Under the pieces are notes generated by a model. That model made no database searches, was not told the origin of the DNA, and worked only from the letters and a program-made list of their open reading frames with translations. This document shows, one piece after another, positions 1 through 41,264 of a stretch of 41,264 bases of DNA (position 1 is the first letter of the stretch; every line of letters starts with the position of its first letter). Origin of the DNA: Escherichia phage 216Ecol046PP. The stretch lies in sequence record PP328844.1; one strand, 5' to 3'. The position numbers were made by a program, and so were the translations under genes.

Positions 1-179
1 TCTCACAGTTCAAGAACCTCAAGTCTCCCCATAGGCCCTCTTTAAGTCCAGACCAAAGGCCCTACCCCAGTCTATCATAAGGTTAGACCGATGGTCAAGA
101 CTTCAGGTCAACGATAGGTCTAGGCTATGGCTTAGGGAAGAACGATAGGTGGTGACTATTGGTCTGTCTTTGAGTCTCT
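1..179 (+). repeat. Terminal repeat copy 1 of 4 (179 bp, begins TCTCACAG as in T7)
   Basis: Read as identical to 501..679, 40586..40764 and 41086..41264 by direct comparison. Confidence 0.9.
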
Positions 180-401
180 GCAGATGACAATAAGGTAGTA
201 AGGTCGCTGAGGGCTTCCACTTCAGCAGGTCGGAAAGGTCCTAAAACCTAACGAGAGTCTGACCAGCTCGCCAAGTCTGCCACTGAGGTGGATAACCAGA
301 GGAGGCAACGTGTCGCCCACTGAGGGGCTACAGCTCACAGTTTAGGTTAACAGGCTAAACAAATGCTTGACAAGATGTAACGATAAGATGTAATATTTAC
401 C
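180..401 (+). repeat. Displaced duplicate of 1180..1401 (early promoter region) joined directly to a terminal repeat copy
   Basis: Read as identical to 1180..1401; junctions at 179/180 and 401/402. Confidence 0.85.
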
Positions 402-500
402 TGGTCTATCCTAGTGTCTCCTGACCTACGGTCCTTGACCTACAGTGGCTGTGGCCTACAGTAGTGACGATGAGTTTTGGACCAAAAGTTTGAGACCACA
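402..500 (+). repeat. Copy of genome right-end unique sequence (matches 40487..40585), forming a concatemer-type junction with the terminal repeat at 501
   Basis: Identity to the sequence immediately preceding the right terminal repeat. Confidence 0.85.
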
Positions 501-679
501 TCTCACAGTTCAAGAACCTCAAGTCTCCCCATAGGCCCTCTTTAAGTCCAGACCAAAGGCCCTACCCCAGTCTATCATAAGGTTAGACCGATGGTCAAGA
601 CTTCAGGTCAACGATAGGTCTAGGCTATGGCTTAGGGAAGAACGATAGGTGGTGACTATTGGTCTGTCTTTGAGTCTCT
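501..679 (+). repeat. Left terminal repeat of the genome unit
   Basis: 179-bp direct repeat; followed by left-end repeat arrays and early promoters as in T7. Confidence 0.9.
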
Positions 680-700
680 ATCTGTATCAGACCTTGAGTC

Positions 701-758
701 ACTACCTACAGTCTAACTACCTACAGTCTAACTACCTACAGTCTAACTACCTACAGTC
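701..758 (+). repeat. Tandem array of a 15-bp unit ACTACCTACAGTCTA (about 3.9 copies)
   Basis: Seen directly; positionally analogous to the short left-end repeat arrays of T7. Confidence 0.85.
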
Positions 759-1040
759 ATCGACCATCGGTAATGCTGCTACCTACAGTCTAAACCTACA
801 GTTAATAGACACAATGGCTATAGACTTAAGGTCTAAGACATGTTAGTCAAAGACTATATCCTCTTACACCATGGGGCCGACGATAGCTTAATCAATATTA
901 TCGACCATCGGTAATGCTGCTACCTACAGTCTAAACCTACAGTTAATAGACACAATGGCTATAGACTTAAGGTCTAAGACATGTTAGTCAAAGACTATAT
1001 CCTCTTACACCATGGGGCCGACGATAGCTTAATCAATATT
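759..1040 (+). repeat. Perfect tandem duplication of a 141-bp unit (759..899 and 900..1040)
   Basis: Two adjacent copies read as identical. Confidence 0.85.
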
Positions 1041-1055
1041 ATTTCAAATTACCTA

Positions 1056-1086
1056 TTGACTATAGGTCCAGACTATGGCCTAATAG
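1056..1086 (+). promoter_or_regulatory. Possible host sigma70 early promoter (TTGACT, then a weak -10)
   Basis: TTGACT at 1056..1061 followed by CTATAGG as in the T7 A1 context; -10 element is weak. Confidence 0.3.
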
Positions 1087-1366
1087 CTTCCGTCAACACG
1101 ACACGGCAACAACCGGATAGTGAAGACGCCGGTGTCATCCCGGTTAAGTAGACAGCCTGATAAGTCATACGAACAACAGGCAGATGACAATAAGGTAGTA
1201 AGGTCGCTGAGGGCTTCCACTTCAGCAGGTCGGAAAGGTCCTAAAACCTAACGAGAGTCTGACCAGCTCGCCAAGTCTGCCACTGAGGTGGATAACCAGA
1301 GGAGGCAACGTGTCGCCCACTGAGGGGCTACAGCTCACAGTTTAGGTTAACAGGCTAAACAAATGC

Positions 1367-1396
1367 TTGACAAGATGTAACGATAAGATGTAATAT
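1367..1396 (+). promoter_or_regulatory. Host sigma70 early promoter (TTGACA, 18-nt spacer, TAATAT)
   Basis: Near-consensus -35 and -10 hexamers upstream of the early genes; a second copy sits in the duplicate at 367..396. Confidence 0.6.
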
Positions 1397-1510
1397 TTAC
1401 CACATCGAAACAACGGTGATGACCAACACTGAAATGGTCTACCTGAAGTCCTCTGACTGAAGGGAATGCTCTTTAACAATCTGGATAAACTCTTAATGTG
1501 CGCCGATAGC

Positions 1511-3272: not shown

Positions 3273-5954
3273 ATGAGCGTCATCTCTATTGACAAACACG
3301 ACTTCTCTGATGTGTCGAACGCCATTGAGCCGTTTAACCTGCTGGCTGACCACTACGGGCAAGACCTTGCAGTCAAACAGCTTCAGCTTGAGCATGAGGC
3401 CTACACTGAAGGTGAGCGACGTTTCATCAAGAACCTTGAGCGTCAGACCGAGCGAGGGGAACTGGCAGACAATCAGGTCGCCAAGCCTTTGATGCAGACT
3501 CTGGTTCCTAAGATTGCGCAAGCCGTCAAGGAGTGGCACGAAGGTCCAGACGGGAAGCTGTCAACCTCACGTCCGAGCGTAGCGTTCACCATGTTAAGCA
3601 CTGAAGAGAAGGCCGTCAAGGACCGCTCTCTTCGCATCTCCTGCGAGTCTGCTGCGGTTATCATACTGAAGGTCATCCTCTCCAAGCTGGTCAAGCCTGA
3701 AGGTATACCGATTACACCGATGGCCTCCGCGATAGGTCGCACACTTGAGGATGAAATCCGATTCGGTCGCATTCGTGACAAGGAGAAGGAGCACTTCAAG
3801 AAGGCGATAGCTGATAACCTGAACAAGAGAGCCGGGGCATCATACAAGAAAGCCTACATGCAAGCGGTCGAGACATCCATGCTGGAGCAAGGCCAACTAG
3901 AAGATGCGTGGGGAACTTGGAGTCCGACCGAGGCTGTCCACGTTGGAATCAAGATGCTGGAGATTGTCATACAGTCAACACAACTGGTAGAGCTTAAGCG
4001 TTACGGTGCTGGCAATGCAGCGGCTGACGTTGAGATGGTCCACCTGTCAGACTTCTGGGTCAAGAAGATGGCACAACGCGGCTTTAGCCTTGCGGGTATC
4101 GCCCCAGTCTACCAGCCTTGCGTCGTTCCACCTAAGCCGTGGACCGGTGTCGTAGGCGGTGGGTACTGGGCCAAAGGTCGCAGGCCTCTACCACTGATTC
4201 GCTTAGGGTCTAAGTCTGCGGTGGCACGTTACGAAGACGTGTACATGCCTGAAGTCTATGACGCTGTGAATATCATCCAGAATACACCTTGGAGAGTGAA
4301 CAAGAAGGTTCTGGACGTGGTGAACATGGTCGAGAAGTTGAACAACACGCCTATTGATGACATCCCTCAGATGGAGCCACTGAAGCCTGAAGAATATGCG
4401 GGTGAGACTGAAGAGGAACTCAAGGCGTGGAAGAAAGCGGCTGCTGGTATCTATCGCCGCGAGAAGGCCAGACAGTCACGCAGATTGTCGCTGAGCTTTA
4501 TCGTTAACCAAGCGAACAAGTTCTCTCAGTTCAAGGCCATCTGGTTCCCGTACAACATGGACTGGCGCGGTCGCGTCTACGCTGTGCCGATGTTCAACCC
4601 TCAGGGTAACGACATGCAAAAGGGTCTCCTGACTCTGGCAGTCGGTAAGCCTATTGGTGCTGATGGTTTCAAATGGCTGAAGGTCCACGGTGCAAACTGT
4701 GCGGGTGTCGATAAAGTCACCTTCGAGGAGCGCATCAAGTGGGTGGAAGACAACCACGACAACATCATGGCTGCTGCTAAGGCACCGATGGATAGCATTG
4801 AGTGGTGGGGCAAGTTAGACTCTCCTTTCTGCTTCCTTGCGTTCTGCTTCGAGTATGCTGGCGTGATGCACCACGGATTGTCTTACTCCTGCTCGCTGCC
4901 GATAGCTTTCGATGGGTCCTGCTCTGGGATTCAGCACTTCAGCGCTATGCTTCGTGACCACATCGGTGGACATGCAGTAAACCTGACGCCTTCCGGTAAG
5001 GTCCAAGACATCTACCGCATCGTGTCTGACCGCATTGAGGAAGAGCTTAAAGTCCTGCTGGTTAACGGCACTGACAACGAGATGGTAACTCACGAGGACA
5101 AGAAAACTGGTGAGATTACCGAGCGTCTCAAGCTGGGGACACGAGAGCTGGCCCGTCAGTGGCTGACCTACGGTATGTCACGAAAGGTCACTAAGCGCTC
5201 AGTCATGACTCTGGCCTACGGGTCGAAAGAGTACGGATTCGCAGACCAAGTATACGAGGACATCGTGATGCCAGCGATTGACTCAGGGTCTGGCGCTATG
5301 TTCACTGAACCAAGCCAAGCATCTCGCTTCATGGCTAAGATGATTTGGGAAGCTGTGAGTGTGACCGTAGTTGCTGCGGTTGACGCGATGAAATGGCTTC
5401 AGGGTGCTGCCAAGCTGCTGGCGGCTGAAGTGAAGGACAAGAAGACGGGTGAAATCCTGAAGCCTTGCCTTCCGGTACACTGGGTCACACCTGATGGGTT
5501 CCCGGTCTGGCAGGAATACCGCAAGAAGGATACAACTCGTCTGAATCTGATGTTCTTAGGGTCATTCAACCTTCAGCCTACCGTCAACAAAGGCACGAAG
5601 AAAGAGCTGGATAAGCACAAGCAGGAGTCAGGCATTAGCCCGAACTTCGTCCACTCACAAGATGGTAGCCACCTCCGCAAGACTGTAGTCCATACTCACC
5701 GCAAGTATGGCGTGATGTCGTTCGCAGTGATTCACGATAGCTTCGGGACCATCCCGGCTGACGCTGAGTATCTGTTCCGTGGGGTCCGTGAGACTATGGT
5801 AGAGACCTACCGCGACAACGATGTGCTGCTTGACTTCTACGAGCAGTTTGAATACCAGCTTCACGAGAGCCAGCGCAATAAGTTGCCAGAGCTTCCGAAG
5901 AAAGGTAAACTGAATATCGAAGACATCTTGTCTTCAGACTTTGCATTCGCTTAA
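3273..5954 (+). CDS. 1: Single-subunit DNA-dependent RNA polymerase (T7 gene 1 homologue), 893 aa
   Basis: Collinear similarity to T7/T3 RNAP throughout (e.g. WFPYNMDWRGRVYAV, HDSFGT, C-terminal FAFA). Confidence 0.97.
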   Translation: MSVISIDKHDFSDVSNAIEPFNLLADHYGQDLAVKQLQLEHEAYTEGERRFIKNLERQTERGELADNQVAKPLMQTLVPKIAQAVKEWHEGPDGKLSTSRPSVAFTMLSTEEKAVKDRSLRISCESAAVIILKVILSKLVKPEGIPITPMASAIGRTLEDEIRFGRIRDKEKEHFKKAIADNLNKRAGASYKKAYMQAVETSMLEQGQLEDAWGTWSPTEAVHVGIKMLEIVIQSTQLVELKRYGAGNAAADVEMVHLSDFWVKKMAQRGFSLAGIAPVYQPCVVPPKPWTGVVGGGYWAKGRRPLPLIRLGSKSAVARYEDVYMPEVYDAVNIIQNTPWRVNKKVLDVVNMVEKLNNTPIDDIPQMEPLKPEEYAGETEEELKAWKKAAAGIYRREKARQSRRLSLSFIVNQANKFSQFKAIWFPYNMDWRGRVYAVPMFNPQGNDMQKGLLTLAVGKPIGADGFKWLKVHGANCAGVDKVTFEERIKWVEDNHDNIMAAAKAPMDSIEWWGKLDSPFCFLAFCFEYAGVMHHGLSYSCSLPIAFDGSCSGIQHFSAMLRDHIGGHAVNLTPSGKVQDIYRIVSDRIEEELKVLLVNGTDNEMVTHEDKKTGEITERLKLGTRELARQWLTYGMSRKVTKRSVMTLAYGSKEYGFADQVYEDIVMPAIDSGSGAMFTEPSQASRFMAKMIWEAVSVTVVAAVDAMKWLQGAAKLLAAEVKDKKTGEILKPCLPVHWVTPDGFPVWQEYRKKDTTRLNLMFLGSFNLQPTVNKGTKKELDKHKQESGISPNFVHSQDGSHLRKTVVHTHRKYGVMSFAVIHDSFGTIPADAEYLFRGVRETMVETYRDNDVLLDFYEQFEYQLHESQRNKLPELPKKGKLNIEDILSSDFAFA

Positions 5955-11732: not shown

Positions 11733-13818
<2,086 letters not shown>

Positions 13819-33723: not shown

Positions 33724-36700
33724 ATGTCCACGATTACACAATTCCCTTCAGGAAACACTCAGTACAGGATTGAGTTCGACTACCTAGCCAGAACGTTTGT
33801 TGTTGTTACGCTGGTGAATAGCTCTAACCCTACCCTGAACCGTGTACTGGAAGTTGGTCGAGATTACCGATTCCTTAATCCAACGATGATTGAGATTTTG
33901 GTTGACCAATCAGGTTTCGACATCGTTCGTATTCACCGTCAGACTGGAACTGACTTAGTGGTAGACTTCAGGAATGGCTCAGTGTTGACAGCTAGTGACC
34001 TGACCAATTCAGAGCTTCAGGCTATCCATATTGCAGAAGAAGGTCGAGACCAAACGGTTGACTTAGCGAAGGAATATGCCGATGCTGCTGGTAGCTCTGC
34101 TGGCAACGCTAAGGATAGCGAGGACGAAGCACGCCGAATCGCTGAGAGTATCAGGGCAGCTGGTCTAATTGGCTATATGACCCGTCGCTCCTTCGAGAAA
34201 GGCTACAACGTTACAACATGGAGCGAGGTCCTGCTATGGGAAGAGGATGGTGATTATTACCGCTGGGATGGTACGCTTCCAAAGAACGTTCCTGCTGGTT
34301 CAACTCCTGAAACTTCCGGTGGGATTGGATTAGGTGCGTGGGTTAGTGTTGGTGATGCTGCTTTAAGAAGTCAGATTTCAAATCCTGAAGGGGCAATACT
34401 CTACCCTGAATTACATAGAGCACGCTGGCTTGATGAAAAAGATGTTCGTGGTTGGGGTGCTAAAGGGGATGGTGTCACTGATGATACAGCAGCATTAACG
34501 AGAGCATTAAACGAAACACCGGTTGGACAAAAGATTAATGGCAATGGGGGAACATATAAGGTCACATCCCTGCCTGACATTAGTAGATTCGTTAATACTC
34601 GTTTTGTATATGAACGTATTCCTGGTCAGCCGCTTTATTATGTCTCTGAAGAATTTGTTCAAGGTGAACTGTTTAAAATAACGGACACCCCTTATTACAA
34701 TGCGTGGCCACAGGATAAAGCGTTCGTTTACGATGATGTTATTTACTGCCCGTTCATGGCTGGTGATAGACATGGGGTCAGTCGTCTGCATGTATCATGG
34801 GTTAAGTCTGGTGACGATGGTCAAACATGGTCTACCCCAGAGTGGTTAACTGATCTGCATCCAGATTACCCTACAGTGAACTATCATTGTATGAGTATGG
34901 GTGTATGTCGCAACCGTCTGTTTGCCATGATTGAAACACGTACTTTAGCCAAGAACGCACTAACCAATTGTGCATTGTGGGATCGCCCTATGTCTCGTAG
35001 TCTGCATCTTACTGGTGGTATCACTAAGGCTGCAAATCAGAGATATGCAACAATCCATGTACCTGATCACGGACTATTCGTGGGCGATTTTGTTAACTTC
35101 TCTAATTCTGCGGTAACAGGTGTATCAGGTGATATGACTGTTGCAACGGTAATAGATAAGGACAACTTCACGGTTCTTACACCTAACCAGCAGACTTCAG
35201 ATTTGAATAACGCTGGAAAGAGTTGGCACATGGGTACTTCTTTCCATAAGTCTCCATGGCGTAAGACAGATCTTGGTCTAATCCCTCGTGTCACAGAGGT
35301 GCATAGCTTTGCTACTATTGATAACAATGGCTTTGTTATGGGCTATCATCAAGGTGATGTAGCTCCACGAGAAGTTGGTCTTTTCTACTTCCCAGATGCT
35401 TTCAATAGCCCATCTAATTATGTTCGTCGTCAGATACCAGCTGAGTATGAACCAGATGCGGCAGAGCCATGCATCAAGTACTATGACGGTGTATTATACC
35501 TTATCACTCGTGGTACTCGTGGCGACCGACTAGGAAGCTCTTTGCATCGTAGTAGAGATATAGGTCAGACTTGGGAGTCACTGAGATTTCCACATAATGT
35601 TCATCATACTACCTTACCTTTTGCTAAAGTAGGAGATGACCTTATTATGTTTGGTTCAGAACGTGCAGAAAATGAATGGGAAGCAGGTGCACCAGATGCT
35701 CGTTACAAGGCATCTTATCCTCGTACCTTCTATGCACGATTGAATGTAAACAAGTGGAGTGCAGATGATATTGAATGGGTTAACATCACAGACCAAATCT
35801 ATCAGGGTGACATTGTTAACTCAGGTGTAGGTGTTGGTTCGGTAGTTGTGAAGGATAATTACATCTACTACATGTTTGGTGGAGAGGACCATTTTAACCC
35901 ATGGACATATGGCGATAACTCAGCGAAAGACCCATTCAAATCGGATGGTCACCCCTCGGATTTGTATTGCTACAAAATGAAGATTGGCCCAGACAATCGT
36001 GTTTCCAGAGATTTCAGATATGGTGCTGTACCCAACAGAGCTGTTCCCGTGTTTTTTGATACGAATGGGATTCGCACTGTTCCTGCGCCAATGGAATTTA
36101 CAGGGGATTTGGGTTTAGGTCATGTGACCATTAGAGCCAGCACCAGTAGTAACATTCGCTCTGAAGTTTTAATGGAAGGTGAATATGGGTTTATCGGGAA
36201 GTCTATACCGACTGATAACCCGGCAGGGCAGCGCACCATATTTTGCGGGGGTGAAGGCACCAGTTCAACGACTGGCGCACAGATTACGCTTTATGGTGCA
36301 AATAACACCGACTCAAGGCGAATAGTTTACAATGGTGATGAGCATCTGTTCCAGACTGCTGACGTTAAGCCTTATCACGATAACGTCATTGCGCTTGGTG
36401 GACCAAGTAACCGTTTCACAACTGCATATCTCGGAAGCAACCCTATTGTTACTTCTAATGGGGGGAAGAAAACAGAGCCGGTAGTTTTTGATGATGCTTT
36501 CCTAGATGCCTGGGGTGACGTTCACTACATCATGTATCAATGGTTAGATGCTGTTCAACTGAAAGGCAATGATGCTCGTATTCACTTCGGGGTTATTGCC
36601 CAGCAAATTCGTGATGTATTCATTGCACACGGTCTGATGGATGAAAACAGTACGAATTGTCGTTATGCCGTTCTGTGCTATGACAAGTATCCACGGATGA

Positions 36701-36918
36701 CCGATACGGTATTTTCGCACAATGAAATCATTGAACACACTGACGAGGAGGGCAATGTCACTACTACGGAAGAGCCTGTATTCACTGAGGTGGTTATCCA
36801 TGAAGAGGGTGAGGAGTGGGGTGTTCGGCCTGACGGAATTTTCTTTGCTGAAGCCGCTTATCAGAGAAGAAAACTGGAAAGAATCGAAGCCAGACTTTCT
36901 GCTCTTGAACAGAAGTAA
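33724..36918 (+). CDS. 17: Tail fibre/tailspike: T7 gp17-like N-terminal anchor fused to a capsule-depolymerase (endosialidase-type) module with C-terminal chaperone domain, 1064 aa
   Basis: N-terminal ~150 aa resemble T7 gp17 (F.YLAR.FVVVTL..., LVDF..GS.L.A.DL); size and layout match what I recall of the K1F endo-N-acetylneuraminidase; AT-richer central region. Confidence 0.88.
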   Translation: MSTITQFPSGNTQYRIEFDYLARTFVVVTLVNSSNPTLNRVLEVGRDYRFLNPTMIEILVDQSGFDIVRIHRQTGTDLVVDFRNGSVLTASDLTNSELQAIHIAEEGRDQTVDLAKEYADAAGSSAGNAKDSEDEARRIAESIRAAGLIGYMTRRSFEKGYNVTTWSEVLLWEEDGDYYRWDGTLPKNVPAGSTPETSGGIGLGAWVSVGDAALRSQISNPEGAILYPELHRARWLDEKDVRGWGAKGDGVTDDTAALTRALNETPVGQKINGNGGTYKVTSLPDISRFVNTRFVYERIPGQPLYYVSEEFVQGELFKITDTPYYNAWPQDKAFVYDDVIYCPFMAGDRHGVSRLHVSWVKSGDDGQTWSTPEWLTDLHPDYPTVNYHCMSMGVCRNRLFAMIETRTLAKNALTNCALWDRPMSRSLHLTGGITKAANQRYATIHVPDHGLFVGDFVNFSNSAVTGVSGDMTVATVIDKDNFTVLTPNQQTSDLNNAGKSWHMGTSFHKSPWRKTDLGLIPRVTEVHSFATIDNNGFVMGYHQGDVAPREVGLFYFPDAFNSPSNYVRRQIPAEYEPDAAEPCIKYYDGVLYLITRGTRGDRLGSSLHRSRDIGQTWESLRFPHNVHHTTLPFAKVGDDLIMFGSERAENEWEAGAPDARYKASYPRTFYARLNVNKWSADDIEWVNITDQIYQGDIVNSGVGVGSVVVKDNYIYYMFGGEDHFNPWTYGDNSAKDPFKSDGHPSDLYCYKMKIGPDNRVSRDFRYGAVPNRAVPVFFDTNGIRTVPAPMEFTGDLGLGHVTIRASTSSNIRSEVLMEGEYGFIGKSIPTDNPAGQRTIFCGGEGTSSTTGAQITLYGANNTDSRRIVYNGDEHLFQTADVKPYHDNVIALGGPSNRFTTAYLGSNPIVTSNGGKKTEPVVFDDAFLDAWGDVHYIMYQWLDAVQLKGNDARIHFGVIAQQIRDVFIAHGLMDENSTNCRYAVLCYDKYPRMTDTVFSHNEIIEHTDEEGNVTTTEEPVFTEVVIHEEGEEWGVRPDGIFFAEAAYQRRKLERIEARLSALEQK

Positions 36919-40423: not shown

Positions 40424-40585
40424 TACTGTAGTCAAGGACTTTAGGTAACACCTTAAGAGAAGCTCACTTAGGGTCATCCTACTTATTGGTCTATCCTAGT
40501 GTCTCCTGACCTACGGTCCTTGACCTACAGTGGCTGTGGCCTACAGTAGTGACGATGAGTTTTGGACCAAAAGTTTGAGACCACA

Positions 40586-40764
40586 TCTCACAGTTCAAGA
40601 ACCTCAAGTCTCCCCATAGGCCCTCTTTAAGTCCAGACCAAAGGCCCTACCCCAGTCTATCATAAGGTTAGACCGATGGTCAAGACTTCAGGTCAACGAT
40701 AGGTCTAGGCTATGGCTTAGGGAAGAACGATAGGTGGTGACTATTGGTCTGTCTTTGAGTCTCT
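40586..40764 (+). repeat. Right terminal repeat of the genome unit
   Basis: Identical to 501..679. Confidence 0.9.
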
Positions 40765-41085
40765 ATCTGTATCAGACCTTGAGTCACTACCTACAGTCTA
40801 ACTACCTACAGTCTAACTACCTACAGTCTAACTACCTACAGTCATCGACCATCGGTAATGCTGCTACCTACAGTCTAAACCTACAGTTAATAGACACAAT
40901 GGCTATAGACTTAAGGTCTAAGACATGTTAGTCAAAGACTATATCCTCTTACACCATGGGGCCGACGATAGCTTAATCAATATTATCGACCATCGGTAAT
41001 GCTGCTACCTACAGTCTAAACCTACAGTTAATAGACACAATGGCTATAGACTTAAGGTCTAAGACATGTTAGTCAAAGACTATAT
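40765..41085 (+). repeat. Copy of left-end unique sequence 680..1000 following the right terminal repeat (concatemer-type continuation)
   Basis: Identity to 680..1000 including the 15-bp array and part of the 141-bp duplication. Confidence 0.85.
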
Positions 41086-41264
41086 TCTCACAGTTCAAGA
41101 ACCTCAAGTCTCCCCATAGGCCCTCTTTAAGTCCAGACCAAAGGCCCTACCCCAGTCTATCATAAGGTTAGACCGATGGTCAAGACTTCAGGTCAACGAT
41201 AGGTCTAGGCTATGGCTTAGGGAAGAACGATAGGTGGTGACTATTGGTCTGTCTTTGAGTCTCT
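41086..41264 (+). repeat. Fourth terminal repeat copy, joined to an internal point of the left-end region
   Basis: Identical to the terminal repeat; junction at 41085/41086 breaks collinearity with 1001 onward. Confidence 0.85.

Follow-up and report, generated by a model that had tools for sequence, protein, structure and literature searches.

In coliphage K1F, positions 1-179 form a repeat that is present at both genome ends, and a 179-nt 'long terminal repeat' is annotated in phage Vec13. Around the repeat, Vec13 and phage MirsaeidiM_Esher2 (Esher2) share one order, in which right-end unique sequence is followed by the repeat, the left-end repeats and a 222-nt segment. Providencia phage vB_PreP_EPr2, also a Kayfunavirus, has a deposited genome of 41,261 bp (OM256482.1), about 1 kb above the genus norm, in which 'Direct Terminal Repeat; DTR type: DTR (short)' is annotated four times (1-179, 501-679, 40583-40761 and 41083-41261). 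It was described as a Unicycler assembly of 41,261 bp with termini determined by PhageTerm and with 179-bp DTRs (PMC9026810). For the Kayfunavirus Sparklingdew, read coverage of the PhageTerm-corrected contig fell 12.7-fold at a junction located 85 bp away from the DTR; its authors set this contig aside in favour of the raw assembly (PMC13298934).

Here we analysed the full 41,264-nt stretch of Escherichia phage 216Ecol046PP (PP328844.1), referred to as the window, which likewise holds four copies of a 179-nt repeat at its ends. This four-copy terminal architecture is almost certainly no real feature of the phage DNA and represents a recurrent artefact of finishing software.

Results

A K1F-like phage genome

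Judged by its sequence, the phage behind the window is an ordinary K1F-like coliphage, a podovirus of the genus Kayfunavirus. Identity to many Kayfunavirus records is 93-97% over 20 kb, with PhiNW-B1 being the best whole-genome relative (96.7%) and Vec13 reaching 95%. The left-end region is 99.5% identical to Esher2, and the 179-nt repeat shares 97.8% identity with the K1F repeat and 96.6% with the annotated repeat of Vec13. The internal path of the window follows the same order as Esher2 and Vec13. Homology to the K1F group thus covers both the repeat and the gene content. The window carries Ocr and terminase genes as well as the following two reading frames:

3273-5954: ORF of a T7-type single-subunit RNA polymerase
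33724-36918, + strand: endosialidase tailspike of 1064 aa with the full K1F-type domain set

The domains of the tailspike are End_beta_propel (E = 1e-220), End_tail_spike and the Peptidase_S74 chaperone. Because this is the full K1F-type endosialidase set, the phage is probably specific for K1-capsulated E. coli. Ten matches to TAACTATCACTATAGG with at most 2 mismatches were found between 3184 and 39931, all on the + strand and against 0.02 expected by chance, and these sites are predicted phage RNA-polymerase promoters. None of the ten lies in the duplicated end pieces. We further noticed an HNH_3 homing-endonuclease-like ORF of 121 aa (11733-12098, + strand), which lies directly upstream of the primase/helicase ORF (11995-13776) and extends over its start.

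The 167-aa Ocr protein was matched only by the Logan contig SRR27434576_1415, which encodes an identical copy. This contig of 34,325 nt stems from a related Kayfunavirus with 92-98% identity in the aligned pieces, and its start falls inside the region of a 15-nt array. In the window, this tandem array (3.9 copies of ACTACCTACAGTCTA) is located just right of the terminal repeat at 701-758, with a copy at 40786-40843 and further CCTACAGT motifs near 701-758. A comparable 15-nt array is found at the genome ends of Sparklingdew (PMC13298934). The array might possibly play a role in concatemer processing or packaging. An ORF of 65 aa with a GTG start (649-846 and 40734-40931, + strand) begins inside the terminal repeat and crosses the array; it appears twice because the ends are duplicated. 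In Esher2, a 'hypothetical protein' CDS is annotated at 2748-2945 over the stretch that matches this ORF. The ORF is probably not a gene.

Repeat copies and displaced segments

The 179-nt repeat, beginning with TCTCACAGTTCAAG, is present in four copies of 100% identity (1-179, 501-679, 40586-40764 and 41086-41264). Positions 180-401 equal 1180-1401 (222 nt, 100%), a match that stops dead on both sides, and 402-1000 is an exact copy of 40487-41085. A chance origin is not at issue since the repeats are exact and long. From 402 to 41085 the sequence follows a clean, concatemer-like path with a period of 40,085 nt, and this path is broken by the flanks. On the left, the repeat at 1-179 is followed by 180-401 and is thereby exactly 500 nt short of the canonical order, in which the repeat leads into position 680. 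On the right, the last repeat copy comes after a copy of position 1000.

The earlier note on this DNA had described the four repeat copies, the fusion of a repeat to a displaced copy of 1180-1401 within 1-401 with its 500-bp deficit, the clean junction-to-junction concatemer path at 402-41085 and the fusion of 41086-41264 after position 1000 of the left-end copy. All of this was reproduced exactly. The note had also reported a short similarity, ACTATAT/TCTCACAG, at the right junction, and here our results differ: at all three aberrant junctions (179/180, 401/402 and 41085/41086) the expected and the actual neighbours share 0 nt on either side. Two of these junctions, 401/402 and 41085/41086, fall away from the repeat boundaries.

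The lengths involved are round. The window consists of 500 + 40,264 + 500 nt, and its excess over the canonical genome is exactly 1000. The middle part, 501-40764 (40,264 nt), has the canonical layout of T7-type genomes, a repeat at either end and none inside, whereas the window as given holds four copies. We assigned each segment a concatemer coordinate C, with C1 set at window position 501:

1-179: C1-179, offset 0
180-401: C680-901, offset +500
402-41085: C-98 to C40585, offset -500
41086-41264: C1-179, offset -1000 (modulo the period)

All moved pieces are therefore displaced by exact multiples of 500 nt. Such round decimal spacings are the mark of string slicing and foreign to biology.

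A padding rule reproduces the window

We formulated a string rule of three steps. A contig R of unit length is padded by wrap-around, I = R[-500:] + R + R[:500]. The coordinates a..b of the repeat are read in the unpadded R and applied to the padded I. The string TR + I[b:] + I[:a-1] + TR is then written out and, for the window, needs a last reverse-complement step. We scanned every one of the 40,085 possible contig starts on both strands exhaustively (2 x 40,085 candidates), and a single candidate reproduced the 41,264 bases in full. In this solution, R is window 902-40986 on the reverse strand (40,085 nt) with the repeat at contig positions 223-401, and the window equals TR + I[402:] + I[:222] + TR after reverse-complementing. 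The window was also rebuilt independently from 902-40986 alone. A correct export of the same contig gives window 501-40764. According to the rule, the parts of the window would be the following:

1-179, + strand: repeat copy pasted by the export step, identical to 40586-40764; first term of the string model
180-401, + strand: final 222 nt of a 500-nt wrap-around pad, rotated to this place; equals 1180-1401 at an offset of exactly 1000
402-901, + strand: second 500-nt pad, identical to 40487-40986 and containing the repeat 501-679
501-40764, + strand: output of a correct export, canonical 40,264 nt with a 141-nt overlap still in
902-40986, - strand: probable original assembler contig, the unique solution of the scan
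1001-1179, + strand: original of the 179-nt pad copy that was excised
40586-40764, + strand: the only repeat copy inside the assembled contig; terminal repeat at the right end of the true genome
40987-41085, + strand: initial 99 nt of the 500-nt pad that was split, a copy of 902-1000
41086-41264, + strand: second pasted repeat copy

The repeat 501-679, lying inside the pad 402-901, happens to mimic a natural concatemer junction.

The rule suggests how the record may have come about. The contig would have been padded with 500 wrap-around bases on each side, the repeat located at 223-401 of R and the padded string cut at those unpadded coordinates. As unpadded and padded coordinates differ by 500, the cut would have spared the repeat and removed an innocent 179 nt, namely the pad copy of 1001-1179. 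The excision of this piece would account for the repeat after 41085 and for the start of 180 at a copy of 1180. The remaining 222 nt of that pad would have been rotated behind the pasted repeat, giving the appearance of a '500-bp deletion'. Both pads would have survived with parts of the end region, the pad at 402-901 bringing along a whole repeat, and two further repeats pasted on the outside would result in four copies with 500-nt spacings. We conclude with high confidence that the terminal architecture is a finishing artefact created after assembly, with padding left in and coordinates taken from the wrong frame.

Several other string models were tried. A padded model in forward orientation failed with shifts of -1000, -500, 0 or +1000, and only '+500 at second copy' fitted, which is the reverse-strand version of applying unpadded coordinates to a padded string. 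A terminus tool fed with a contig that contains two repeat copies would, reasoning by hand, produce adjacent double repeats, and these are unlike the window.

A 141-nt tandem duplication at the contig boundary

Tandem Repeats Finder detected a perfect tandem duplication at 759-899 and 900-1040 (period 141, 2.0 copies, 100%). The periodicity runs 2 nt past 2 x 141 (to 1042), which is compatible with chance, and further copies of the unit are found at 40844-40986 and on into the pad. The contig boundary derived from the string rule, 901/902, falls at the centre of this duplication. Consistently, the reconstructed contig opens and closes with one and the same 141-nt sequence, and its prefix and suffix agree at no other length. 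The unit is single-copy in Esher2, Vec13 and the Logan contig described above, and none of 131 matching phage records contained the copy-to-copy junction in one piece.

A circular contig from a de Bruijn graph has the same property as the reconstructed contig: its k-long prefix and suffix are identical and produce a perfect tandem duplication on joining. Untrimmed end overlaps measure 127 nt for SPAdes and 141 nt for MEGAHIT, and the default largest k of MEGAHIT is 141. In the literature, 'k-max 141' occurs in 71 papers and is commonly used as the largest k with MEGAHIT, while a literature search on a 141-bp overlap of circular MEGAHIT contigs returned nothing relevant. We infer that a de Bruijn assembler with a final k of 141 produced the contig, and the duplication is very likely the untrimmed k=141 overlap of the contig ends. 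In principle, the duplication could be real and the assembler could merely have broken there. The overlap forms an extra layer, which the earlier note had left unconnected to the terminal architecture.

Collapsing the 141-nt overlap leads to a unit of 39,944 nt and a genome of 40,123 bp, and the length of the window is accounted for as 41,264 = 39,944 + 141 + 1000 + 179. As the duplication most likely represents an untrimmed overlap, the true genome probably comprises about 40,123 bp with a single 179-nt direct terminal repeat at each end.

The padding rule also reproduces phage EPr2

We applied the same rule to OM256482.1. The record was reproduced base for base, again with a unique solution, in which the contig is in forward orientation and the repeat lies at 140-318. 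The reverse-complement step that the model needs for the window is unneeded for EPr2. One 141-nt fragment is misplaced in EPr2, and its displacement is a multiple of 500. The reported length of 41,261 bp is therefore probably 1000 nt too long. In both genomes the repeat lies less than 500 nt from a contig end, and both were noticed through the four-copy layout that this very condition produces.

We infer from these two records that the faulty tool may be PhageTerm or a wrapper around it. PhageTerm exports sequences in the form 'TR + rest + TR' and probably pads references by 500 in its code, with the normal code path stripping the pads. Our literature search turned up no published mention of a 500-nt 'edge' for either PhageTerm or PhageTermVirome, so that the attribution to PhageTerm is tentative. 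A fault in a wrapper or in a particular version would be equally possible, and the faulty step could also have been a manual procedure.

Aberrant junctions in other sequence collections

We searched other collections for the three aberrant junctions. No contig in IMG/VR matched 22-mers placed over them, whereas the 22-mer over the canonical junction from the repeat to the left end was present in 2 IMG/VR contigs. Among 50,697 records of a phage collection, 141-nt probes over the aberrant junctions gave no contiguous match; they matched as two pieces 330-500 nt apart or with half the probe only. The canonical repeat-to-left-end junction was matched in one piece in 30 phage records of this collection. 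The best 60 relatives hold 1 or 2 repeat copies each.

Alternative explanations

We considered whether the layout could have arisen without an export error, by mis-assembly of reads in an assembler or polisher through overlaps across the repeat or 500-nt polishing windows. Assemblers often yield concatemer-like overhangs on phages with DTRs, some polishers use 500-nt windows, and the 141-nt end overlap is itself an assembler product. Yet read errors are unlikely to generate error-free and gap-free copies that obey one coordinate-frame rule, and the placement of the outer repeats follows the form 'TR + rest + TR' exactly. The breakpoints at 179/180, 401/402 and 41085/41086 miss the boundaries of 500-nt windows, for which reason we rejected polishing windows as the cause, and EPr2 as a short-read Unicycler assembly has the same layout. 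Mis-assembly is thus an improbable explanation. The earlier note had named an assembly artefact as one option; it was right about an artefact in kind, but the error arises after assembly, at terminus rotation and repeat addition, and not from mis-assembled reads.

Another possibility is that the padding was added when the analysed sequence was prepared and is absent from the public record of the phage. In line with this, the exact sequence had no match in the 50,697-record phage collection, where no record reached 99% identity, or in a gene-position index, which also lacked the terminase protein. Nevertheless, if a 40,264-nt record were simply extended around the circle by 500 nt per side, its flanks would differ from those observed, as a check by hand showed, and the same layout is present in the deposited OM256482.1, where the submitters themselves annotated four repeats. 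We regard this explanation as very improbable, more so than mis-assembly.

The earlier note had finally offered recombination in concatemers or defective genomes, that is, a real molecule in the form of an aberrant or defective virion genome or of a replication intermediate, with extra repeat copies and a rearranged left end produced by recombination between terminal repeats, and this reading is hardly credible: T7-type phages do replicate via concatemers joined at the repeat, the left-end region is rich in short repeats such as the 15-nt array at 701-758 and an extra 1 kb (+2.5%) would probably be packageable, but offsets of exactly 500, 1000 and 500 nt with an excess of exactly 1000, junctions off the repeat boundaries at 401/402 and 41085/41086 and 0 nt of microhomology at all three are unlike a recombinant, for which junctions at repeats or microhomology with arbitrary spacing would be expected, and a single string rule yields both the window and the unrelated EPr2 record with its identical layout. 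Moreover, each of the internal repeats is embedded in an intact native concatemer junction, where a T7-type terminase would be expected to cut. A molecule of 41,264 bp would thus be reduced to the 40,264-nt form in the next round and would not breed true. That such a molecule, or at least one of the odd junctions, exists in virions, with the round spacings and the EPr2 twin being coincidental, has next to no probability.

Discussion

An export error after assembly, the reading that we prefer, gives the terminal architecture of the window no biological significance, and its value lies in database curation. Genome length is inflated by about 1.1 kb in this record, of which 1000 nt are padding and 141 nt are k-mer overlap. 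Three of its junctions and one tandem duplication are probably not real, and the record would seed spurious 'hypothetical protein' calls, for example the 65-aa ORF at 649-846 and 40734-40931. The fault is recurrent, as EPr2 (41,261 bp) provides at least one further GenBank genome, already published, with this error. Further cases may be recognised by repeats at 1, 501, L-678 and L-178 or, more generally, by an excess of exactly 1000 nt.

The EPr2 genome, which is about 93% identical to the window, resembles it in having its 179-nt repeats at 1, 501, L-678 and L-178 and an excess of exactly 1000 (41,261 = 40,261 + 1000). It differs from the window in its forward contig, in contig ends without k-mer overlap and in the misplaced 141-nt fragment (40944-41084), which is found at the right end and not at the left. 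Sparklingdew, judged by the description in the paper, is similar in being a Kayfunavirus with a suspect junction near the DTR after terminus correction (PMC13298934). K1F and Vec13 agree with 501-40764 in carrying one repeat per end and in the order of right-end unique sequence, TR, 15-nt repeats and early region. In contrast to the window with its four repeat copies and two pads, both have a single repeat at each end and a single 141-nt unit.
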